Below, piece by piece: positions 1 to 9,363 of a stretch of 9,363 bases of DNA. The translations under genes and the position numbers were made by a program. The notes below the pieces were generated by a model, which worked only from the letters and a program-made list of their open reading frames with translations, was not told the DNA's origin and did no database searches. Position 1 is the first letter of the stretch; each line of letters opens with the position of its first letter. Source of the stretch: a virus (lineage: Duplodnaviria; Heunggongvirae; Uroviricota; Caudoviricetes); the IMG/VR virus record IMGVR_UViG_2711768060_000012, positions 1 to 9,363 of that record; one strand, given 5' to 3'.

Positions 1-1218
1 ATGAACAAACTGAGCGACACATTGTTAAGAAAACTTCATGGTAAGCCGGCGGAGAAAAATACGTTTTATAGTGATGGCGGAAATCTGAGCGTGAAATATT
101 TAACATCAGGGAAATTGACCTGGTATTTCACTTACAGGGCAGGAACGGGAAGAGGTACGCCACCGGAACGCCTGAAGCTGGGAAATTATCCTGATCTGAG
201 CCTGAAAGCAGCCAGGGAAAAAGCAGCACTGTGTCGCGCATGGCTGGCAGAGGGAAAAAATCCACGCCATGAGCTTAATTACTCCATACAGGAAGCACTA
301 AAGCCGGTAACGGTAGGCGATGCGATCAGCTACTGGCTGGAAATGCACGTAAAGGAAAACCGTGTCGATTACGTATGCCTGAAAAGCCGCCTTAATAATC
401 ACGTCATACAGCACATCGGCAATATGCCACTGGATAAATGCGAGTTACGTCACTGGCTGGCCTGTTTTGACCGGATACGCAAAAAATCACCCGTAACATC
501 TGGCCACATGATGCAGGCGTGCAAACAGGCGCTTAAGTTCTGCCGTAAACGTCGCTACGCAGTCAGTAACGTTCTGGATGATCTCAACGTGGTGGACGTT
601 GGCAAAAAGCCGGGCATAAGCGAACGCGTGCTTAGTAACAAAGAACTGGGCGAATTATTACAGGCGCTGGATAAAAAAATATTCCCGCCCTACTACAGCG
701 CACTAATCCGCCTCCTGATTGTGTTCGGCTGCCGGACCGGAGAACTGAGACTGTCGGAGATCAGGGAGTGGGATTTTAAGGAAATGCTCTGGACAGTACC
801 GAAGGAGCACAGCAAAACGAAGGTCGCCATATTCAGGCCAATACCGGAAAGCATTTTACCGTTCGTCACACAGCTGGTGGAGCAGAACCGACACACAGGG
901 CTATTACTCGGGGAACTGAAACAGGAAGCCAGCGTGTCGCAATACGGCAGATTCACGCACAAAAAATTAAACCATCCGCACTGGTCACTACACGATATAC
1001 GGCGCACGTTTACCACGATGCTGAACGATTTAGGCGTGGATCCGCATATTGTCGAGCAGCTTACCGCTCACCAGATGCCAGGGATGCAGCGAGTCTATAA
1101 CCACTCACGCTATATTGATGCGAAACGTAACGCGCTGGATATGTGGACAGAGCGATTAGAGATACTGGCGGGTGCTCACGAAAACGTAACCACACTGCCA
1201 ATAGCCAGAGAAATATAA
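1..1218 (+). CDS. int: Tyrosine site-specific integrase, P4-type
   Basis: 405-aa ORF. N-terminus (KLTWYFTYRAG...LKLGNYPDLSLKAAREKA) and C-terminus (HDIRRTFTTMLNDLGVDPHIVEQLTAHQ...VYNHSRY) match the P4/CP4-57 integrase pattern, including the HxxR and catalytic Tyr region. Confidence 0.9.
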   Translation: MNKLSDTLLRKLHGKPAEKNTFYSDGGNLSVKYLTSGKLTWYFTYRAGTGRGTPPERLKLGNYPDLSLKAAREKAALCRAWLAEGKNPRHELNYSIQEALKPVTVGDAISYWLEMHVKENRVDYVCLKSRLNNHVIQHIGNMPLDKCELRHWLACFDRIRKKSPVTSGHMMQACKQALKFCRKRRYAVSNVLDDLNVVDVGKKPGISERVLSNKELGELLQALDKKIFPPYYSALIRLLIVFGCRTGELRLSEIREWDFKEMLWTVPKEHSKTKVAIFRPIPESILPFVTQLVEQNRHTGLLLGELKQEASVSQYGRFTHKKLNHPHWSLHDIRRTFTTMLNDLGVDPHIVEQLTAHQMPGMQRVYNHSRYIDAKRNALDMWTERLEILAGAHENVTTLPIAREI

Positions 1219-1244
1219 TTTTTTTCGCGATTTTTCAGGACGTA

Positions 1245-1360
1245 CACAACGTGGAACAACGAGACACAACGACGAACAACGGCGAACAATCTGAAACAAA
1301 TCTGATTATCTATGATTATTTCTGATTAACTCCATATAAGTCTGATTTTCTGGTGATTTA
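1245..1360. repeat. Two 10-bp-phased direct repeat arrays: (A/C)ACAAC x6 (about 1246-1295) then TCTGATT-like x5 (1301-1359)
   Basis: ACAAC pentamers at 1246, 1256, 1266, 1276, 1286(ACAAT) and 1295; TCTGATT/TATGATT/GGTGATT at 1301, 1311, 1321, 1341 and 1353. Strict helical-turn spacing, immediately downstream of the int stop. Confidence 0.6.
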
Positions 1361-1594
1361 CTGTTTTTTTGTACATTGGCGAATCACTCTTAAAAATATG
1401 TAAAAAAGGTGTGAATGTAGAATTTTATGCCTTTGCATCACAATGAATTAAAAGAGTTTTTATTCTCATTACCCCACTTCTGTAAAATGACCGCCGCCAG
1501 TGTTTGCCATTCCATAAACACCCTGACACAATCCGACGCACCACAACACAATAGGACACCAAATAACTCTTTAAGAAATATCAAAGGGGGAATT

Positions 1595-1783
1595 GTGTTA
1601 AGCACAGATCGCTTTATACGTGAAAAAGAATGTCAGCAACTAACAGGCCTGAGCCGTTCATGTCGGTACCGCCTGGAAAAGGCCGGACAATTCCCATCAC
1701 GGCGTAAACTCGGCGGTCGTTCCGTTGGCTGGTCTTTATCCGAAGTTCTGGCATGGAAGGACAGCTGCGAGGCAGTTCACTAA
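1595..1783 (+). CDS. alpA: AlpA-family transcriptional regulator (phage/island activator, MerR-like HTH)
   Basis: The C-terminal 62 codons of track ORF 1427-1783 (VLSTDRFIREKECQQLTGLSRSCRYRLEKAGQFPSRRKLGGRSVGWSLSEVLAWKDS) resemble E. coli AlpA. GTG at 1595 is preceded by AAAGGGGG (1583-1590). The exact start is uncertain and could be an upstream in-frame ATG. Confidence 0.75.
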   Translation: MLSTDRFIREKECQQLTGLSRSCRYRLEKAGQFPSRRKLGGRSVGWSLSEVLAWKDSCEAVH

Positions 1784-1924
1784 TCAGACTGGCGGCATAC
1801 AGCCGCCCCCCATCCACTAACACAGAGATTTAACCATGAAGGCTGGATATACGCCCGAACAGGGGCGGGGGTTCGCTCGTCCTGGTGAAACTAAAAAGCC
1901 ATGTTATCGGGTATTTTCAGGCAT

Positions 1925-1952
1925 AAAAAAAGCGGCCCCGATAAGGAGCCGC
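1925..1952 (-). terminator. Intrinsic terminator, minus-strand oriented
   Basis: On the minus strand GCGGCUCC-UUAUC-GGGGCCGC forms an 8-bp stem (one G-U) followed by U7. The + strand version has a C/A mismatch and no U tract. Confidence 0.55.
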
Positions 1953-1996
1953 CTTTCTGAACAATTAACCTGCTGCACAAAAAATAAATATGAGCA
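1926..1996 (-). ncRNA. Candidate small RNA (~70 nt) between an extended -10 promoter and an intrinsic terminator
   Basis: Minus-strand TGaTATAAT (complement of + 2002-2010), then about 70 nt of U-rich sequence with a CUGCU/AGCAG hairpin, ending in the 1925-1952 terminator. No ORF with an RBS in the interval. Prediction only. Confidence 0.3.
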
Positions 1997-2001
1997 GTGG
2001 G

Positions 2002-2010
2002 ATTATATCA
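2002..2010 (-). promoter_or_regulatory. Extended -10 promoter element (TGnTATAAT) on the minus strand
   Basis: + strand ATTATATCA is the reverse complement of TGATATAAT. The -35 is weak (TTGTGG at non-optimal spacing). Confidence 0.35.
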
Positions 2011-2045
2011 GCCAGGTGACGAAGCGCCACAATTGCCGGATAACA

Positions 2046-2076
2046 GGCAAAACAAAGGCCACCCGCTACGGTGGCC
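2046..2076 (-). terminator. Intrinsic terminator for the leftward RHH-like gene
   Basis: Minus-strand GGCCACC-GUAGCG-GGUGGCC (7-bp stem) followed by UUUGUUUU, about 100 nt downstream of the stop at 2180. Confidence 0.55.
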
Positions 2077-2179
2077 CCTCGACACAAGCTACACGTTATC
2101 CACAACGCAAGAGAGCTGATTACTATGCCGTGATTACATCCGGTTGGCAATGTGATCAGTGTGCTGGCTTGCTGGTGGG

Positions 2180-2359
2180 CTATTCCTGCTCTTTGGCCTT
2201 GCGCCGCTGGCGGCGTTTGATCTCACCACGCATGGCTGTAACGATAAACTGCGCGTCTGTTTCGTTTTCCTCTTTGACCAAATTCATTTCGCTTAAAACT
2301 TCTAGAGGGATTCTAGCCGTTTTTTGTTGTGATTTGTTGTTGGTTGTACCCGTTGGCAT
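2180..2359 (-). CDS. Small basic DNA-binding protein, possibly ribbon-helix-helix fold (59 aa); candidate island regulator
   Basis: Internal ATG (complement of 2357-2359) of track ORF 2180-2536, preceded by a perfect SD AAGGAGG with 6-nt spacer. Product MPTGTTNNKSQQKTARIPLEVLSEMNLVKEENETDAQFIVTAMRGEIKRRQRRKAKEQE has a beta-strand/helix/helix layout and a basic tail. Candidate -10 TATACT at complement of 2391-2396. Confidence 0.55.
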   Translation of the reverse strand: MPTGTTNNKSQQKTARIPLEVLSEMNLVKEENETDAQFIVTAMRGEIKRRQRRKAKEQE

Positions 2360-2400
2360 TACTGGCCTCCTTACTGTTAGGTGGCGTTCAGTATACGTAG

Positions 2401-2471
2401 AAAAAAAAATAAAAAAAGGCTTGAAGTGCAAGTCACCTAAAAGTAGCATAACCTTTAAAGGTGACTTGCAC
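2401..2471. promoter_or_regulatory. A9TA7 tract plus 13-bp perfect inverted repeat (GTGCAAGTCACCT ... AGGTGACTTGCAC, arms 2426-2438 and 2459-2471); operator and/or minus-strand terminator
   Basis: Arms are exact reverse complements separated by 20 bp that contain the palindrome CCTTTAAAGG. On the minus strand the hairpin is followed by a long U tract. On the + strand it overlaps a candidate promoter (-35 TTGAAG 2421-2426, -10 TAGCAT 2444-2449) for the rightward operon. Confidence 0.5.
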
Positions 2472-2552
2472 CTTAAAGACAAAGCCCCGCAAGTGTCGTT
2501 ACCACTCGCAGGGCTTCTAACCACCAACGATAGCAAGATTATCGAGGCAGCT

Positions 2553-2756
2553 ATGAGAAATCATACCACACACCCGCAAGGGCGGGACTCGCACAACCTG
2601 AATAAATACATCTGGCGTTTTATCGCCCTGAGCACGGCACAACCGCGCGTGATTACCATTGAGGCCACCAGCGAACAGGAAGCACGCCAGCAATCCCCGG
2701 CTGGCTGCGTGATGGTATTCGCCGCCCGTATTCGTCAGGAGGTGCGCCATGATTAA
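2553..2756 (+). CDS. Small protein resembling Icd-like host cell division inhibitor family (67 aa)
   Basis: Last 67 codons of track ORF 1836-2756. ATG at 2553 is preceded by GAGG (2544-2547). KYIWRFIALSTAQPRVITIEATSEQEARQ...VFAARIRQ matches my recollection of Icd-like proteins in P4-like islands. The upstream part of the 306-aa ORF looks non-coding. Confidence 0.55.
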   Translation: MRNHTTHPQGRDSHNLNKYIWRFIALSTAQPRVITIEATSEQEARQQSPAGCVMVFAARIRQEVRHD

Positions 2757-2961
2757 TCTGTCACTTACCGACCTTAACCGCGTTCAGTTTCGTGAGAAAT
2801 TCACCGGGCAGCTACTGGTCAATGTGGAGAATGGACGCGTGGTGTGTAATTACCACCTGCCAGATGAATCAATTGTCGCAACAAGGGAATCATTACAGGA
2901 ACTCGCAGAACATGCCGGAATGATTAACGCGAATATTCAGGGGGTGCGCCATGTGCAATAA
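2749..2961 (+). CDS. Hypothetical protein (70 aa)
   Basis: ATG at 2749 is preceded by AGGAGG (2737-2742) and overlaps the upstream stop (translational coupling). No family recognised. Confidence 0.6.
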   Translation: MINLSLTDLNRVQFREKFTGQLLVNVENGRVVCNYHLPDESIVATRESLQELAEHAGMINANIQGVRHVQ

Positions 2962-3418
2962 CACCCATCCGGACGCAGCCGCCGAAGCTATCAAAACACT
3001 GATTGATGCGCTGATTGATATTTCTGTTATCGCGGACAGGGCGCATAAGCACGCCACCAGCGAAACAGAATATGCCGGGGCTTTCGTTCCTCACTCACTG
3101 GCTGTTATGCAGCTTAGCGCCGATATGGCGCTGAATGGGGCTAAAGCAATCCTGATTGCTGATTGTGAAAATGGGGGGGGGGTTATGCGTGATGATCGTT
3201 TTAATGCCCTGAAACAGGAATTTGATGGCGCACCGGAAGATACAGATATTGCGCTGTTATGTGTTGCTGACATGGTAAAAGCTGCATGTTTTTTACTGGA
3301 AACCGCCGAACATTCAGGAACGGGTAGCGATATTCTCAATATTGCGTCGGACTATGCGGAATATGTGGCAGAGGCACGTTACAGAAGAAAATTACCGGAG
3401 GATGTAAGCCATGGATAA
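2951..3418 (+). CDS. Hypothetical acidic protein (155 aa, about 26 D/E versus 12 K/R) containing an in-frame G10 tract
   Basis: ATG at 2951 overlaps the upstream stop. Coherent protein-like sequence on both sides of the G10 run at 3173-3182 (encodes ENGGGV). No family recognised. Confidence 0.65.
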   Translation: MCNNTHPDAAAEAIKTLIDALIDISVIADRAHKHATSETEYAGAFVPHSLAVMQLSADMALNGAKAILIADCENGGGVMRDDRFNALKQEFDGAPEDTDIALLCVADMVKAACFLLETAEHSGTGSDILNIASDYAEYVAEARYRRKLPEDVSHG

Positions 3419-3619
3419 AATCCCTTTCGATGTTCTTATTCATTCTGAGAATGCATTAATCAGGGCGCTTGAATTAAAAACGGTACTGGATGAATTAACC
3501 GAAAATAACACCGAGCGGGGGGGTATTTACTTTCTGCTTTCAGCACTCTGTTAACCCCGGTTATTGATGAATTAAACGCGGTTATGGAAATGCACGACAA
3601 GACCCGCGCAGAGGAATAA
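3411..3619 (+). pseudogene. Small gene (69 codons if corrected) interrupted by a frameshift at a G7 tract (3517-3523)
   Basis: ATG at 3411 with GGAGGA (3397-3402) opens MDKIPFDVLIHSENALIRALELKTVLDELTENNTERGG..., which stops at 3555. The -1/+2 frame opens right after a stop at 3506-3508 and continues YLLSAFSTLLTPVIDELNAVMEMHDKTRAEE to a stop at 3617-3619, just before the next gene. One extra G would fuse the two frames. Confidence 0.45.
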
Positions 3620-3624
3620 AAACC

Positions 3625-3924
3625 ATGAAAAAGAAAATTTCTGGCTTTACTGCCAGCGGCCCCGCTCGGCCTGAAATCCGCCCCGGCGATATTTTCCGGG
3701 ATAACTACGGCGGCACGGTAACGATTAAAAGCGTGGCGGGACGGTGCGTTACTTACCGCCGTGATGGGTACGGCTATGACTGCGTGATGCCTGTTTATCA
3801 GTTCCGGCGTGATTTTTCGCTGGTACAGGCCACACCACGCAGACAGCCCACCAGCAACGCAAAGGCACGGGCAAATATTCAGAAAATGAAAAACATGATT
3901 AACGCATTCAGGGGCACAAAATGA
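3625..3924 (+). CDS. Hypothetical small protein (99 aa), possibly a DUF4222-like prophage protein
   Basis: ATG at 3625 is preceded by GAGGAA. Stop overlaps the helicase start (ATGA at 3921). The IRPGDIFRDNYGGTVTIKSV...RDGYGYDCVMPV motif is tentatively recalled from small prophage proteins. Confidence 0.6.
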   Translation: MKKKISGFTASGPARPEIRPGDIFRDNYGGTVTIKSVAGRCVTYRRDGYGYDCVMPVYQFRRDFSLVQATPRRQPTSNAKARANIQKMKNMINAFRGTK

Positions 3925-5336
3925 AACTGGCACCGAACTTAAAAAAACAGCCACACGACAAAATGACCGAAGTCATTATTTTTGCGGGTAGTGATGCCTG
4001 GGCGCACGCGAAACAATGGCAGGAACAGGACGGGCGACTTGCTGGCGACAACGTGCCACCTGTATGGCTTGGAGACAGCCAGCTTGACGAACTGGCAGAC
4101 CTGAAAATCATCGATGATGGTCGCTATTGTGTCCGGCTGTACAAGGCAGGCCACATCAAGCCGTCAAATATTAATGCCATCGGGCAAAAGCTGGCGGCGG
4201 CAGGTGTACGGGATGCGAATTATTACCCTGAGGGAATGCACAGCCAGAAGCTGGAGAACTGGCACGACTACCTGCAACGGATCCGCGAACAGACAGAGCG
4301 CGGGGAAATACTTACTGACGAGCAATACAGCCAGCGAAAAACCACGCTACCAATGAGCATTGGATCTGCAGGGTACGACACACAGCTTGATTATGTCGTT
4401 AAGGGCGTGATTCCGGCTAATTCATTGTGCAGCACATACGGCGCGAGCGGTTCCTATAAATCGTTCCTCGCGTGTTCCTGGGCGTGTCATGTTGCCACGG
4501 GTCGCCACTGGGGAGGCCGCAGGGTGGCGCATGGTTCGGTGATGTATGTTGTCGGTGAAGGTGGCATTGGTGTCCCCCGCCGTATCAAAGCATGGGAAAT
4601 CGTTAATGATGAACGGGTGGAAAATCTGTACTTGGTAAACCGCCCGATTTTTCCGGCAGTTCCGCTTGATGTCGATGAAATGGTCATCGCTTCCCGCCAG
4701 GTTGAACGGGAAACGGGTAAACCGGTACGCATGATTATTCTGGATACGCTGGCGCGTTGCTTTGGCGGTAATGATGAAAATGACGCGCGGGATATGGGGG
4801 CGTTTATCCGTGGATGTGACGAACTGAAGCGACGCACAGGGGCCACGGTACTGGTGGTTCACCATTCCGGCAAGGATGAAACAAAGGGGGCGCGTGGTTC
4901 CAGTGCATTTCGTGCATCTCTGGACGCTGAATACCGTATTCGCCGGGAAGGTGCAGACAGTGAAGCCCTGGTTATCTCCTGTACCAAAATGAAGGACGCG
5001 GAGGAACTTAAAGAGGCTGCATACGATTTACGCGTGGTGGAGCTTTTTACCGACGCTGACAAGGAGTTAATCACGTCGCTGGTGGTTGTGGATAAGCCGC
5101 GCCCACCTGTTGAACTGGAACGCATCGAGGAAGCCGGGAACAAGACGGAGAATCATGCCGCGCTATGGGGCTGTATCCGTTCACGCACACAGCGCAGCGA
5201 TAAATGCACTATCCCGTTGTTGCGCGATGATATGAAAAAGCTGGGGTATGAGATGAAAAACTTCCGGCGCTGGCTGTACAAGCTGGAAAGAGACGGCGTT
5301 ATCGCTATTGACGGTGATGATGTGCGCCCACTGTAA
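3921..5336 (+). CDS. Replication protein: RepA-like / AAA_25 RecA-fold helicase with an N-terminal domain of unknown type
   Basis: 471-aa ORF. P-loop-like GASGSYKS (4440-4463), Walker B-like VRMIILDTLARCFGG, and LVVHHSGKD typical of RepA/DnaB-type helicases. Followed by an iteron array. Confidence 0.8.
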   Translation: MKLAPNLKKQPHDKMTEVIIFAGSDAWAHAKQWQEQDGRLAGDNVPPVWLGDSQLDELADLKIIDDGRYCVRLYKAGHIKPSNINAIGQKLAAAGVRDANYYPEGMHSQKLENWHDYLQRIREQTERGEILTDEQYSQRKTTLPMSIGSAGYDTQLDYVVKGVIPANSLCSTYGASGSYKSFLACSWACHVATGRHWGGRRVAHGSVMYVVGEGGIGVPRRIKAWEIVNDERVENLYLVNRPIFPAVPLDVDEMVIASRQVERETGKPVRMIILDTLARCFGGNDENDARDMGAFIRGCDELKRRTGATVLVVHHSGKDETKGARGSSAFRASLDAEYRIRREGADSEALVISCTKMKDAEELKEAAYDLRVVELFTDADKELITSLVVVDKPRPPVELERIEEAGNKTENHAALWGCIRSRTQRSDKCTIPLLRDDMKKLGYEMKNFRRWLYKLERDGVIAIDGDDVRPL

Positions 5337-5535
5337 AAAGTGAGGCGCAAAAGTGAGGGGATAGCAGGAACTGAACAAAAAGCAACCGCACCCCTCACTT
5401 TTCAACCTGTATATAGGCTCAAAAGTGAGGAATAAAAAACACATTGAAAAACAACATATTAGAATCACAAAAAAACAATGTTGGAAATCATGTGGGGAGC
5501 TTAAAAAGTGAGGTGAAAAAGTGGGGAATAGTGAG
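5336..5535. repeat. Iteron array, likely replication origin: AAAAGTGAGG repeated 5-6 times with an AT-rich core
   Basis: AAAAGTGAGG at 5336-5345, 5349-5358, 5421-5430 and 5504-5513; degenerate copy 5517-5526; inverted copy CCTCACTTTT at 5393-5402. AT-rich stretch 5431-5490. Directly downstream of the helicase gene. Confidence 0.6.
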
Positions 5536-5537
5536 AA

Positions 5538-5789
5538 ATGACCAGAAAAACCAGAGATAAGACAGCGCCAAAATATCGCGCATTAGACATGACAGAGCAC
5601 GCCTTAAAGGTGGCAATCAGAACGATAGACCGCCATGCCGGAGAAGGATACGCGAAAGCACATCCCGAACTGATAAGCGCATTCATGACCACAGCGGCGG
5701 CAAACTTTGCCACGCTGACAGAGCGGGAGATTGCGGAAGCGGAACAGGTGACAACCATCAACGTTAAAACCGGAGAGCAGACAGCATGA
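5538..5789 (+). CDS. Hypothetical protein (83 aa)
   Basis: ORF with a weak RBS. Stop overlaps the SSB start (ATGA at 5786), suggesting coupling. No family recognised. Confidence 0.5.
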   Translation: MTRKTRDKTAPKYRALDMTEHALKVAIRTIDRHAGEGYAKAHPELISAFMTTAAANFATLTEREIAEAEQVTTINVKTGEQTA

Positions 5790-6208
5790 CAGCACAGATA
5801 GCGGCTTACGGTCGGCTGGTGGCTGACCCTCAGTTAAAGACCACCAGCAAAGGGACACAAATGGCGATGGCGAGTATGGCGGTTCCCCTGCCGTGCAGCC
5901 AGGCAGATGACGGAACGGCGACGATGTGGTTATCCGTCCTGGCGTTTGGCAGACAGGCCGACGCACTGGCAAAACACCACAAAGGCGAACTGGTGAGCGT
6001 GGCGGGTAACATGCAGGTAAGCCAGTGGACAGGCCAGAACGGCGAAGCGCGGCAGGGCTGGCAGGTTATCGCAGACAGCGTAATCAGTGCGCGAACGGTG
6101 CGACCGGGCGGCAAAAAAGGCCAGCAGGGCCAGGCTACTGACGCACTGAACAGGGCAAAACAACAGGCGGGAAATGATGATCCGTACGGGGATAACATAC
6201 CGTTTTAA
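5786..6208 (+). CDS. ssb: Single-stranded DNA-binding protein (SSB, OB-fold)
   Basis: 140 aa. N-terminal OB-fold-like region, Gly/Gln-rich linker (GGKKGQQGQ) and acidic C-terminal tip ...DDPYGDNIPF, resembling the SSB DDDIPF tail. Confidence 0.8.
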   Translation: MTAQIAAYGRLVADPQLKTTSKGTQMAMASMAVPLPCSQADDGTATMWLSVLAFGRQADALAKHHKGELVSVAGNMQVSQWTGQNGEARQGWQVIADSVISARTVRPGGKKGQQGQATDALNRAKQQAGNDDPYGDNIPF

Positions 6209-6224
6209 GCAACGAGTGACAGAA

Positions 6225-6248
6225 GCCGGGGTTTTTCCCGGTTTTTTT
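6225..6248 (+). terminator. Intrinsic terminator after ssb
   Basis: CCGGG-GTTTTT-CCCGG hairpin (6226-6241) followed by T7 (6242-6248). Confidence 0.6.
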
Positions 6249-6295
6249 ATGGGTCCTTCCTGAAAAATGGAACACCGGGGGGATGCGGACGCGCA
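6242..6295 (+). repeat. 54-bp direct repeat, copy 1 (TTTTTTTATGGGTCCTTCCTGAAAAATGGAACACCGGGGGGATGCGGACGCGCA)
   Basis: Identical to 8713-8766. Starts at the T tract of the ssb terminator. Confidence 0.9.
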
Positions 6296-6476
6296 GAAAA
6301 CGGCTGGTTTTTGCATTTTCATGGTGGCGGCAGCATGTGTGATAATTAATTGATAATTAAAAATTATTTCTGTTTTCACCTGTACAATCTTTTTTCTCCC
6401 CCTGTCATCAGACCAGTTTGCAATTAATTGAAATATATAAACAAATTTGTTTTTCACCTGCCAAATGGAGCTGCCT

Positions 6477-6572
6477 ATGTCAAATGTGATTGGGATTGGT
6501 GATGCTTATCACTGGCACACAAAAATGAATATTGCATATTTTGCAATGCAATTGATCATCATTGCATTTTGA
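6477..6572 (+). CDS. Candidate 31-codon small ORF / leader peptide (MSNVIGIGDAYHWHTKMNIAYFAMQLIIIAF)
   Basis: ATG at 6477 is preceded by GGAG (6467-6470). Hydrophobic C-terminus. Overlaps the dyad-rich control region and could equally be non-coding. Confidence 0.2.
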   Translation: MSNVIGIGDAYHWHTKMNIAYFAMQLIIIAF

Positions 6573-6616
6573 TCAACACTGCACACTTCAAATATCAGTC
6601 TGAAACGAGGTGTTAC

Positions 6617-6820
6617 GTGAACGAAAAGAAAGCTGTATCGGTTTATCTCGACAATGAAACGGCGCTTGCCCTGTACCGTTTGCGCGAAGATATTCGCAAG
6701 AAAAATGCAGAAACGGGAATGGATCTTCCCACGCCAACAGTCGGCTGGCTTGCCCGTTCATTGTTGCGTCAAAGCCTGGGAATTAAGGCAGACAAAAAAG
6801 ATTTGCCTCATGAGGGGTAA
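6617..6820 (+). CDS. Small ribbon-helix-helix-like protein (67 aa) upstream of the capsid gene
   Basis: GTG at 6617 is preceded by GAGG (6607-6610) inside track ORF 6569-6820. KAVSVYLDNETALALYRLREDIRKK fits the RHH pattern of a beta-strand followed by a helix. Confidence 0.5.
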   Translation: MNEKKAVSVYLDNETALALYRLREDIRKKNAETGMDLPTPTVGWLARSLLRQSLGIKADKKDLPHEG

Positions 6821-6825
6821 GGTTG

Positions 6826-8667
6826 ATGGAAATTTCATTGTATGAGCCAATCGAAGGCGTAACCGCAAGACAGTTCCGCGATTCACTTATGGCTGCAAAA
6901 GGCCCGGTTACGGTTGCCATAAACAGCGGTGGCGGAAATGTAACTGACGGCATGGCGATGTTTAACGCCCTGAGAACGTACAAAGGCCACACGGTCGCAA
7001 GAATCGACGGTATCGCCGCATCAATGGCTACCATTGTTGCGCTCGGTGCCCGGCGTGTCGTGATGGCTGATAACGGCTGGTGGATGATCCATAACCCGTG
7101 GGGCGTTTTTGTTGGTGAATCGGAAGATCTCCGCAAAAAAGCCGACATGATGGAAAAAATCGGCAAGGCAATGCTTGATACCTACGTTGCCAAAACCGGA
7201 TTACCGGAATCAGAAATCAAAGCCATGATGGATGCTGAAACATGGCTGACGGCTGAGGAAGCGAAAGAAAAAGGATTTATTGATGAAATTTATCCGGCAG
7301 AGGGACAGGCATTAGCCATGGCCCCTGGTTGCGGATCACTGGTAGAGAAATTTACCAGAACGCCGGAAAGCATCATCGCATCGATGAAGAAAGGCGACAC
7401 GGGATCAGCAAACGAAAGAGAGAAGCGAAAAAAAGAAGCCGACGTTTTGTTTGCTTACTGGAAGAATTCTTCGTATGAGTGGTTGCCAGGAATTGTTGAA
7501 GAATTTATCAGCGGTTCCATCACTGCCGAAGAAGCACGTAAAAAACACTTAGAAAAACTGGCGGAAGAGACAACGCCGTGCGCAGGACCAGGAGCAATGA
7601 ACATGTATGCAGGTAACGGTAATATTGTTGGGGATTCAGTAAAAGCGGCGCTTATGGCACGCAGTGGACTGGCAGATGTGGAAAAAGATAACCGCTATAA
7701 CGGTTATTCATTGCGGGAACTGGCGCGCGCTTCTCTGGTGGATCGTGGGGTAAGCGGCATTCCCGGTAATCCGCTGGGCATGGTCGGAATGGCGTTTACT
7801 CACAGCAGTAGTGATTTTGGCGGCGTTCTTGCGGATGTGGCGCATAAATCATTACTGAAAGGCTGGGAAGATTCACCGGAGACGTTCCACGCCTGGACGA
7901 AAAAAGGCACTCTGACAGATTTTAAGGTTGCCCATCGTGTTGGTATGGATGGTTTTAAATCTTTGCGAAAAGTTTTACCAGGCAGTGAATACAAATACGC
8001 GTCCACGTCCGATCGCAGCGAGCCAATTGCACTGGCAACTTATGGCGAACTGTTCAGCATAGATCGCCAGGCAATCATCAATGACGATATGAGTGCGCTA
8101 ACTTCAATCCCCCAGCAAATGGGGGCAGCAGCAAGCCGCACAGTCGGAGATCTGGTTTATGCCGTTCTCGTGGCTAATCAGAGGATGGGCGATAAAAACC
8201 CGCTCTTTGATGCGAAACACAGCAATCTGATTAACAGCGAACTTGATATTCCAGGCCTGAGCGCAGCCCGTAAAGCTATGCGTATGCAAAAAAATAATGC
8301 TGGTGCTGTACTGAATATTCCGCCTCGTTTCCTGTTAGTTCCGGTAGAACTGGAAGACAGAGCAACCCAGCTTATTCGTTCTACGTCGCTACCAGACGCG
8401 CAGAACAGCGGTGTGTTTAATCCATACAATGATGCTCTGACAGTAATCACAGAAGCGCGGCTGGATGCCGACAGCGTGAAATCCTGGTATCTGCTTGCTG
8501 GTCAGGGAAGTGATACAATCGAAGTCGCTTATCTCGATGGTATTGATACCCCGTACCTGGAACAGCAGCAGGGCTTTACGGTTGATGGCGTTACTTTCAA
8601 AGTGCGCATTGATGCCGGAGTTTCTCCCCTGGACTGGCGCGGGATGGTTAAGTCATCAGGTGGCTAA
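6826..8667 (+). CDS. Prohead protease (ClpP/S14-like) fused to major capsid protein (HK97-fold)
   Basis: N-terminus AINSGGGNVTDGMAMFNALRTYKGHTVARIDGIAASMATIVALGARRVVMADNGWWMIHNPWG has ClpP-like Ser/His motifs. The long C-terminal domain resembles HK97-family capsid proteins. ATG at 6826; the track start at 6823 is TTG. Confidence 0.8.
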   Translation: MEISLYEPIEGVTARQFRDSLMAAKGPVTVAINSGGGNVTDGMAMFNALRTYKGHTVARIDGIAASMATIVALGARRVVMADNGWWMIHNPWGVFVGESEDLRKKADMMEKIGKAMLDTYVAKTGLPESEIKAMMDAETWLTAEEAKEKGFIDEIYPAEGQALAMAPGCGSLVEKFTRTPESIIASMKKGDTGSANEREKRKKEADVLFAYWKNSSYEWLPGIVEEFISGSITAEEARKKHLEKLAEETTPCAGPGAMNMYAGNGNIVGDSVKAALMARSGLADVEKDNRYNGYSLRELARASLVDRGVSGIPGNPLGMVGMAFTHSSSDFGGVLADVAHKSLLKGWEDSPETFHAWTKKGTLTDFKVAHRVGMDGFKSLRKVLPGSEYKYASTSDRSEPIALATYGELFSIDRQAIINDDMSALTSIPQQMGAAASRTVGDLVYAVLVANQRMGDKNPLFDAKHSNLINSELDIPGLSAARKAMRMQKNNAGAVLNIPPRFLLVPVELEDRATQLIRSTSLPDAQNSGVFNPYNDALTVITEARLDADSVKSWYLLAGQGSDTIEVAYLDGIDTPYLEQQQGFTVDGVTFKVRIDAGVSPLDWRGMVKSSGG

Positions 8668-8688
8668 TACACAATCAGGCATGTTATG

Positions 8689-8720
8689 TTTTTTTTGCGG
8701 CCTTCGGGCCGCTTTTTTTA
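8689..8720. terminator. Bidirectional intrinsic terminator after the capsid gene
   Basis: T8 - GCGGCC-TTCG-GGCCGC - T7: perfect 6-bp GC stem with a tetraloop, flanked by T tracts on both sides. Confidence 0.65.
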
Positions 8721-8766
8721 TGGGTCCTTCCTGAAAAATGGAACACCGGGGGGATGCGGACGCGCA
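8713..8766 (+). repeat. 54-bp direct repeat, copy 2
   Basis: Perfect match to 6242-6295. Starts at the T tract of the capsid terminator. Confidence 0.9.
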
Positions 8767-8880
8767 TAAATCGAGAGATTTTTGATATTTTATGCGTGCA
8801 GCAGCATAAGTTTAATGCTTTGATTTTTAACATTATTGATTTGTTTTGTTGAAAAAGCGACCGTGCAGTGAGGTGGTAAA

Positions 8881-9363
8881 GTGGAACTGAGCAAAATGCA
8901 GGTTAATGTCTCACAATTGGCAGACCTGGTAGGCATGAATCGAAATCTTGTTTCACGCCGTTTGCGTGAGCTGGAGCTTGTTGGCGGGAATGGTGAGAAT
9001 CTTAAATTGTATGAACTCGGTCCGGCACTTCAGGCACTACTGACCCCATCAATGAAAGAAAATGGTGAAATGTCACCACAGGATCGGAAAGCCTGGTATC
9101 AGTCAGAAAATGAAAGGCTGAAATTTGAAGCAGCTTCACGTGAATTACTCCCTGTCGAAGAGGTGGCCCGTGAATATTCATCTCTGGCTAAAGCCGTGGT
9201 CATGGTGCTGGAAACGTTACCGGATATTCTTGAGCGCGATTGCGCTCTCCAGCCTTCTGCAGTCATGCGAGTACAACGCATTATTGATGATCTACGTGAT
9301 GAAATGGCGAGAAAGATAGCAGAAAGCGATTCAGATAATGGCTGGCCTGCATGTGCAAGATGA
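8881..9363 (+). CDS. Terminase small subunit, lambda Nu1-like
   Basis: MQVNVSQLADLVGMNRNLVSRRLRELEL...NLKLYELGPALQAL parallels the Nu1 N-terminal wHTH (VNKKQLADIFGASIRTIQNWQEQGMP...NEVLYDSAAVIKWY). Start is either GTG 8881 (GAGGTGG upstream) or ATG 8896. Stop coincides with the window end. Confidence 0.75.
   Translation: MELSKMQVNVSQLADLVGMNRNLVSRRLRELELVGGNGENLKLYELGPALQALLTPSMKENGEMSPQDRKAWYQSENERLKFEAASRELLPVEEVAREYSSLAKAVVMVLETLPDILERDCALQPSAVMRVQRIIDDLRDEMARKIAESDSDNGWPACAR

Follow-up and report, generated by a model that had tools for sequence, protein, structure and literature searches.

We propose that the control region of a phage-satellite island works as a repressor-operator switch that is backed by an antisense RNA. 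The region lies in a 9,363-nt stretch of viral DNA (Caudoviricetes; IMG/VR record IMGVR_UViG_2711768060_000012, positions 1 to 9,363), referred to below as the window, which according to its gene content is an island of the Gram-negative phage-inducible chromosomal island (PICI) kind. A short leftward gene, encoding a predicted ribbon-helix-helix (RHH) protein of the YlcI/YnfO family, diverges here from a rightward operon that starts with an Icd-like gene. Between them, an 11-bp site, GTG-N5-CAC, is present three times on the promoters of both units, and the start of the Icd-like gene is overlapped by a predicted leftward RNA. This control-region layout is conserved in about 70 islands of Enterobacterales, and the central five bases of the site (N5) vary together with the N-terminal β-strand of the protein. 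We regard the complete arrangement of RHH switch and antisense RNA as the probable one, and its repressor-operator part as well supported by the sequence comparison.

Candidate operator sites in the divergent control region

The comparison was based on 62 loci, one genome per species, to which eight loci were added for the closest homologues and four E. coli loci were held out; the regions upstream of the RHH gene were aligned on its start codon. In the window, the control region contains the following elements:

2054 to 2079, minus strand: intrinsic-terminator-like hairpin and T-run downstream of the RHH-like gene, from a terminator scan
2180 to 2359, minus strand: YlcI/YnfO-family gene for a predicted RHH DNA-binding protein of 59 amino acids (aa), stop codon included
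2366 to 2372, minus strand: Shine-Dalgarno (SD) sequence AAGGAGG, recognized from the sequence, 6 nt before the ATG
2381 to 2391, minus strand: candidate operator O1, CTGAACGCCAC, 11 bp, overlapping the end of the PL –10 element and the predicted start point
2390 to 2395, minus strand: –10 element TATACT of the leftward promoter PL, found at –36 relative to the ATG in almost every locus
2401 to 2417, plus strand: A9-T-A7 tract, placed like an UP element of the rightward promoter PR (about –54 to –38)
2420 to 2425, plus strand: PR –35 element TTGAAG, called from conservation
2426 to 2436, minus strand: candidate operator O2, GTGACTTGCAC, core of the left repeat arm, in the PR spacer and adjoining the –35 element
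2443 to 2448, plus strand: PR –10 element TAGCAT, 17 nt after the –35 element
2461 to 2471, plus strand: candidate operator O3, GTGACTTGCAC, core of the right repeat arm, at about +7 to +17 of PR
2553 to 2756, plus strand: Icd-like gene (open reading frame), first gene of the rightward operon

An earlier note on this DNA had described the leftward gene with a perfect SD sequence, a candidate –10 element and a downstream terminator (2079–2054), all of which are present, as are the A9TA7 tract and an exact 13-bp inverted repeat, GTGCAAGTCACCT (2426–2438) and AGGTGACTTGCAC (2459–2471), with a gap of 20 nt. The start codon of the Icd-like gene, placed there at 2545, had to be moved to 2553. The repeat is the longest perfect inverted repeat of the window at loops of 3–40 nt, and 13 bp were reached in one of 100 dinucleotide-preserving shuffles. 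Its position over the rightward promoter, as suggested in the note, agrees with the alignment, since the conserved PR spacer and the early transcribed region carry the two arms. Of the proposed divergent repressor-operator switch, the layout is upheld by its recurrence in about 70 islands and by the covariation of site and β-strand described below. The palindrome as its functional unit is not: judged from the aligned loci, this unit is the 11-bp GTG-N5-CAC site, which is present three times. Site O1, on the gene's own promoter, had not been part of the earlier description.

Nearly all loci follow the same plan. O1, an 11-bp GTG-N5-CAC sequence, starts inside the TATACT element, 36 nt before the ATG, and the other copies are found at –77 (O2) and at –99 to –112 (O3). 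Within one locus, the three copies show 0–1 mismatches in nearly all cases, while N5 varies between loci. The orientation of O2 is always that of O1, whereas O3 forms a direct repeat in about 33 loci and an inverted one in about 27. In about 60 loci, the sites lie at fixed distances over core elements of both the target promoter and the regulator's own promoter. Within the window, the exact 11-mer GTGACTTGCAC occurs at O2 and O3 only, and no further copy with up to two mismatches was found there except for one chance-level match inside the Icd-like gene.

The inverted repeat could alternatively act as an RNA or DNA hairpin, for example in termination or processing, instead of providing a pair of protein-binding sites. 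In the window, its arms could form a 13-bp stem, and the minus strand has a T-rich run 9 nt later. However, such a stem is impossible in about half of the loci, where both copies keep their positions but point in the same direction. Two closely related loci, L066 and L002, combine nearly identical proteins and the same O3 position with opposite O3 orientation. Moreover, a third copy lies on the PL –10 element, and the two arms never occur together in a predicted transcript: PR starts between the arms, and the antisense RNA ends before them. We therefore rejected the hairpin reading, which we judge to be highly improbable, and regard the hairpin potential of the window as incidental. A palindrome acting only as a terminator hairpin was also the outcome against which the earlier note had measured its proposal, and the direct repeats argue against it.

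A generic promoter scan of the window reported neither PL nor PR, and both calls rest on conservation and not on a match to the consensus. On the rightward strand, O2 directly follows the sequence TTGA(A/C/G)N in 63 of 65 distinct regions. Upstream of this –35 element, the adjoining 22 nt are on average 79% A+T, with 61% A on the rightward strand (65 distinct regions). At 17–18 nt from the –35 element, related loci show TAnnnT; the exceptions have TATAGT or TATACT at 18-nt spacing, overlapping O3. The predicted start of PR is near 2455, and that of PL near 2383. With O2 in the spacer and O3 just downstream of the start, both sites occupy positions from which a bound protein would repress, and the location of O1 on the PL –10 element and start point implies autoregulation.

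The RHH protein as candidate reader of the sites

The leftward reading frame extends from the ATG at 2359–2357 to the TAG at 2182–2180, and its 59-aa product is MPTGTTNNKSQQKTARIPLEVLSEMNLVKEENETDAQFIVTAMRGEIKRRQRRKAKEQE. A program-made list of open reading frames extends the gene upstream to a TTG at 2536; the homologues all start at the ATG, and related loci carry a GGAG-type motif in the position equivalent to the SD sequence. The protein matches the NCBIfam model NF041551 (YlcI/YnfO), an N-terminal model of 42 positions with a curated cut-off, at 62.9 bits (cut-off 30; E 2e-17), with residues 9–50 on model positions 1–42. Its relatives in E. coli carry the YlcI/YnfO annotation as well, and it also matches PHROG 949, a functionally unassigned family. 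No match was obtained in Pfam even at E values up to 10, phmmer and profile searches of PDB sequences gave chance-level matches only, and tblastn found no homologue in 50,697 phage records. The family is small: grouping at 90% identity gives 114 clusters, a set of 1.84 billion proteins contains 91 representatives at the 50% level, and all named members are from Enterobacterales. In EcCICFT073-like islands (L001 8421–8726, L074 1347–1652 and L075 1776–2081), the YlcI/YnfO gene is annotated as encoding 101 aa, including a C-terminal extension that the 59-aa protein of the window does not have; some distant family members comprise 100–130 aa.

The earlier note had suggested an RHH-like protein by pattern only. 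The alignment shows invariant residues at N7, K9, S10, A15, R16, P18, E33, Q37-F-I-V40, E46 and I47, and variable ones at 11–14 and 17. An AlphaFold2 model (AF2; mean predicted local distance difference test score, pLDDT, 80.7) has an extended N-terminus, a helix at residues 19–28 and a second one at 35–58; this is a monomer model in which the strand is not formed. Within about 45 residues, the topology corresponds to strand-helix-turn-helix, and helix B is preceded by a turn of the Gly-x-Ser/Thr type. Among solved RHH proteins, Arc gave the best local alignment: hhalign placed residues 9–32 on Arc 6–29 at 46% identity, with Q12, T14 and R16 opposite Arc Q9, N11 and R13, which we take to be its base-contacting residues. 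Together with the NF041551 match, model and alignment agree with the earlier assignment, and the protein is likely to adopt an RHH fold resembling Arc and CopG. A literature search on YlcI, YnfO, DUF3950, Icd-like plus antisense and the regulation of capsid-forming PICIs (cf-PICIs) did not retrieve a functional study, and the reading presented here is a first functional hypothesis for the YlcI/YnfO family, whose genes are of unknown function.

The link between this protein and the sites comes from their covariation. N5 follows the decapeptide of the β-strand (residues 9–18): each of 26 strand types goes with a single N5 or with two N5 sequences distinguished by 1–2 positions. We compared pairs of loci in which the identity of the remaining protein sequence was held at 65–80%. 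Pairs with at least nine of ten identical β-strand residues shared the operator in 90% of cases (n = 40). This fraction dropped to 12% at seven to eight identical residues (n = 65) and to 1% at six or fewer (n = 225).

GTG-N5-CAC could also be a real operator that is read by AlpA, a helper-phage protein or a host factor, leaving another role for the RHH protein. AlpA is the only regulator experimentally shown for these islands and activates downstream genes (PMC6092414), and binding by the RHH protein is a prediction. Against another reader, N5 changes along with the RHH β-strand when overall divergence is held constant, and loci of one operator type either lack alpA within 3 kb or carry an alpA that is only 33–65% identical to that of the window. 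A site over the –10 element of the RHH gene itself is also the usual arrangement of an autoregulated repressor. Finally, one RHH/operator type is found beside differing first rightward genes (L073 versus L007). Because of this covariation, the varied first genes and the varied or absent alpA, the sites are in our view more probably read by the RHH protein than by AlpA, and we consider a different reader quite unlikely.

Next to one repressor/operator type, the first rightward gene can be of at least three unrelated kinds (L073 versus L007; L003, L021, L062 and L076), and the antisense RNA and its promoter are retained beside all of them. This pattern suggests that modules have been exchanged, with a break point close to the antisense RNA.

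A predicted antisense RNA over the start of the Icd-like gene

Downstream of O3, the alignment revealed a second conserved element, which together with its terminator at 2481–2517 is absent from the earlier note:

2473 to 2554, minus strand: predicted antisense RNA of about 80 nt, from alignment, consensus fold and covariation
2560 to 2568, minus strand: predicted antisense promoter with the extended –10 element TGG-TATGAT, inside codons 3–6 of the Icd-like gene

The RNA is predicted to start near 2554 and to end near 2474. It consists of a first stem-loop (2518–2553), a conserved single-stranded segment, GGUGGUUAGA, a terminator stem (2481–2495/2503–2517) and a U-run (2473–2480). The hairpin at 2482–2516, imperfect at first sight, becomes perfect on the minus strand with G-U pairs and is followed by UUUGUCUUU. 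Based on 61 distinct sequences, the consensus fold comprises a stem-loop of five pairs and a terminator stem of ten pairs, and in most loci the loop of the first stem-loop holds the complement of the SD sequence of the downstream gene.

In this fold, 96.6% of the cells are paired, compared with 80.5% in shuffles and 36–49% when the structure is slid; none of 500 shuffles was as good. Compensatory changes were found in 14 of the 15 pairs, and the minimum free energy was –39.4 kcal/mol (z = –5.9). Read on the minus strand, 112 cells are G-U pairs, compared with two on the plus strand, and the structure therefore belongs to a leftward RNA. For the same reason, the hairpin at 2482–2516 was ruled out as part of the rightward 5′ untranslated region (UTR). 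A covariance model gave one hit of 68–76 bits per locus, on the correct strand, in the four held-out E. coli loci.

About 60 of the 61 distinct loci carry a TAnnnT element upstream of the RNA structure with constant spacing, although this element overlaps three unrelated kinds of coding sequence. Its variants (TATGAT, TATGCT, TAGACT, TACACT, TACTAT, TAAGAT, TACGAT, TAAACT and TATCAT) alter the encoded amino acids and retain T1, A2 and T6. Loci with a first gene of the window type show TGn just upstream, i.e. an extended –10 element, and those of the third type have TTGATC 16 nt upstream, at the –35 position.

The RNA is complementary to nearly the whole predicted 5′ UTR of the PR transcript, including the SD sequence GAGG (2544–2547) and the AUG. 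Being encoded in cis, the RNA is fully complementary to its target; a second complementary site for its conserved single-stranded segment was not found in the window. Rfam searches returned nothing relevant at E values up to 10 in the region 2380–2640 and nothing at E values up to 1 in the window, and in 14 related loci nothing at gathering score other than tRNA and the int-alpA RNA elsewhere. On the basis of these searches (window, the 260-nt region with lax filters, and 14 loci), we ruled out an immunity RNA of the P1 c4 or P4 CI type upstream of the Icd-like gene. With a predicted promoter of its own, an intrinsic terminator and strand-specific covariation, a cis-encoded antisense RNA is well supported at the sequence level, and it adds a structured RNA that is absent from Rfam.

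The proposed switch, its island and related systems

Taken together, these observations suggest the following mechanism. The 59-aa protein would bind as an RHH dimer to the 11-bp sites via its N-terminal β-strand (about residues 9–18), with three such sites in a divergent control region of 190 bp. Occupied O2 and O3 would block RNA polymerase at PR and keep the operon with the Icd-like, replication and packaging genes off, and O1 over the PL –10 element and start point would provide negative autoregulation. A constitutive leftward RNA of about 80 nt, starting at the start codon of the Icd-like gene and ending at the intrinsic terminator beside O3, would pair with the whole 5′ UTR of PR transcripts that escape repression. 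Translation of the first gene would then be blocked, and the downstream genes would probably be reduced as well, by polarity or duplex cleavage. The elements themselves, their conservation, the strand of the RNA and the covariation of protein and site were observed here; DNA binding, repression as the direction of the effect, the mode of action of the RNA and, beyond these, a role of the RHH protein as "master repressor", as the earlier note put it, are what we infer from this arrangement.

Induction can be pictured more speculatively. In Pseudomonas, AlpA is an antiterminator with which RNA polymerase reads through intrinsic terminators (PMC7969949, PMC9371919). By analogy, AlpA might let RNA polymerase that has started at the alpA promoter continue across the convergent RHH gene, and this would silence the latter by collision and bypass PR. 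To reach the operon, an alpA transcript would need to cross terminator-like hairpins as well as the convergent RHH gene. A GC-rich hairpin (GCGGC...GCCGC, 1926–1958), which lies between A7 and CTTTCT, resembles an intrinsic terminator in both directions: read on the minus strand it has a T7 tail, and the plus-strand version, downstream of alpA, is weaker. With its loop of 11 nt, this hairpin was missed by the terminator scan.

Several observations weigh against our proposal. The –35 region of PL is poor (CTTTTT), and the antisense promoter is predicted to sit within a coding region. The protein gene and the sites are only 20–110 bp apart, so that some covariation is expected from linkage alone. 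In the window, O1 (CTGAACGCCAC) differs from O2 and O3 (GTGACTTGCAC) at four of nine core positions. An equal mismatch is seen in the Salmonella locus L064, which has the same KSQQKTAR β-strand; the odd O1 of these two loci reads CTGAAC[G/A]CCAC, whereas almost all other loci have three agreeing copies. Since L064 shows this pattern despite diverged spacers and terminator, the divergent O1 appears to be maintained. Relatives with a KSRQKTAR strand have GACTCCC at both O1 and O2 and GACTTGC at O3. The window O1 resembles the operator of another RHH subtype (GAACACC, with an SVRLP strand; L026 and L063), and it may bind weakly, be a relic, or serve the protein of another element. Judged from the mismatch, autoregulation is doubtful in the window and in L064. 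Finally, expression of AlpA alone induces EcCICFT073 without a helper phage (PMC6092414), and the RHH protein would therefore not be an absolute lock but exert a repression that can be overridden.

The induction by AlpA alone would also suit a role other than that of maintenance repressor, in which the RHH protein binds the sites as a transient damper of the Cro/Arc kind, or is the protein half of an addiction module that, together with the antisense RNA, silences a toxic Icd-like inhibitor of cell division. The first rightward gene is indeed annotated as a cell-division inhibitor in the relatives. Type I toxin-antitoxin systems have such a layout, in which an antisense RNA covers the ribosome-binding site of a small toxic gene. 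However, RNA and operators are kept where the first rightward gene has no similarity to Icd (types B and C), and PR probably serves the whole operon, although a separate promoter after the Icd-like gene was not searched for. We consider such a damper or addiction role unlikely and prefer the repressor-operator switch with antisense RNA.

According to the paper that defined the Gram-negative PICIs, a global repressor is not known for them, and AlpA, an activator of downstream genes, is the only regulator experimentally shown (PMC6092414); the remark of the earlier note that this class lacks a defined repressor is borne out accordingly. Later papers on cf-PICIs likewise describe only AlpA and nothing on a repressor. 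The 59-aa protein, with its defined 11-bp sites, is a candidate for this "missing" silencing system of enteric satellite islands. A wider and rather tentative idea, which we hold to be possible but somewhat doubtful, is that RHH protein, three operators of variable specificity and antisense RNA constitute the maintenance (immunity) system of Gram-negative PICIs and AlpA-carrying satellites, in which the N5/β-strand pairs would define immunity groups and helper-triggered antitermination by AlpA would bring about induction. If true, such groups would prevent cross-repression between several satellites in the same cell and so allow their coexistence, which would help to explain the up to seven related elements that we found within a single genome. 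About 17 natural site/β-strand specificities offer built-in swap experiments.

The assignment of the window to the Gram-negative PICIs is based on its gene set, which includes int, alpA (AlpA, PF05930), DUF4222, an AAA_25 RepA-type helicase, SSB, a fusion of ClpP protease and capsid protein, and a DUF1441 protein resembling a small terminase. About 60% of the window aligns to E. coli islands at about 93–94% identity. An island of E. coli 'clone D i14' has the identical order int, alpA, leftward YlcI/YnfO gene and rightward Icd-like gene; for the latter, E. coli relatives bear the annotation 'host cell division inhibitor Icd-like protein'. The order int, alpA, leftward RHH gene and rightward Icd-like operon is kept in most of the 62 loci, across many genera. 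At least 128 complete E. coli genomes contain the 400-bp control region at 99% identity or more, and diverged versions are present in about 1,600.

Other features of the island were noted along the way. The open reading frame at 6823–8667 encodes 614 aa, with a ClpP-type protease domain (residues 4–157) fused to a major capsid domain (residues 301–611); because of the latter, the island should make its own capsid protein, like capsid-forming PICIs. Directly after the RepA-type helicase gene (3921–5336), six copies of AAAAGTGAGG in both orientations (5336–5526) probably represent an iteron-type replication origin of the island. Between int and alpA, the decamer ACAACGACGA is repeated in tandem about 4.4 times (1246–1289), and more short tandem repeats follow at 1303–1328 and 1343–1363; these may be binding sites of a recombinase or regulator. 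The int-alpA RNA motif of Rfam (RF02996) scored above gathering score between int and alpA in L007 (5461–5529), L008 (5446–5511) and L051 (5519–5587), and was not found in the window.

With respect to known systems, the closest designs are the immI region of phage P22 and the copy control of plasmid pMV158. P22 immI encodes the RHH repressors Mnt and Arc and combines the divergent promoters Pant and Pmnt with the antisense RNA sar. Like the window, it has a small leftward RHH repressor gene divergent from an operon, an operator over back-to-back promoters, and a leftward antisense RNA of about 70–80 nt that covers the ribosome-binding site of the rightward gene. In contrast, P22 has one operator of 17–21 bp instead of three 11-bp sites with a hypervariable centre, and two RHH genes with an antirepressor as the target instead of one RHH gene and the Icd-like/replication operon of a satellite; a sequence family relationship beyond the fold is not detectable. 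The control of pMV158 combines the RHH repressor CopG with the antisense RNA II acting on repB, but copG and repB share a transcript, and CopG represses the promoter of its own gene, whereas the gene studied here is divergent and has its own promoter and operator.

The small immunity RNAs P1/P7 c4 and P4 CI (Rfam C4) block the ribosome-binding site of an icd-type first gene, acting on icd/ant or on the P4 left operon, and thereby silence the downstream genes. They lie on the same strand as their targets, arise by processing of the operon transcript and act via short boxes of complementarity, unlike the cis-antisense transcript proposed here, which lacks an Rfam match and is thus not a member of the C4 family.

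The Stl proteins of the Staphylococcus aureus pathogenicity islands (SaPIs) are larger helix-turn-helix proteins that are relieved by binding of a phage protein, and the likeness is one of position and logic only. In these islands, a leftward regulator, Stl (Rpr), diverges from the excision, replication and packaging operon (PMC6092414), while induction of the Gram-negative PICIs goes through AlpA.

Within the YlcI/YnfO family itself, YlcI (prophage DLP12) and YnfO (Qin) of E. coli K-12 share the NCBIfam N-terminal model, the small RHH-patterned size and the prophage origin, but their pairwise profile similarity to the subfamily of the window is weak. As K-12 ylcI has the cos site and nohD of a lambdoid prophage as its neighbors and lacks the GTG-N5-CAC triplet, its context is uninformative on mechanism. 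The design of an RHH switch combined with an antisense RNA is itself known; what is new is its place, in enteric satellite islands, and the question it may answer there.

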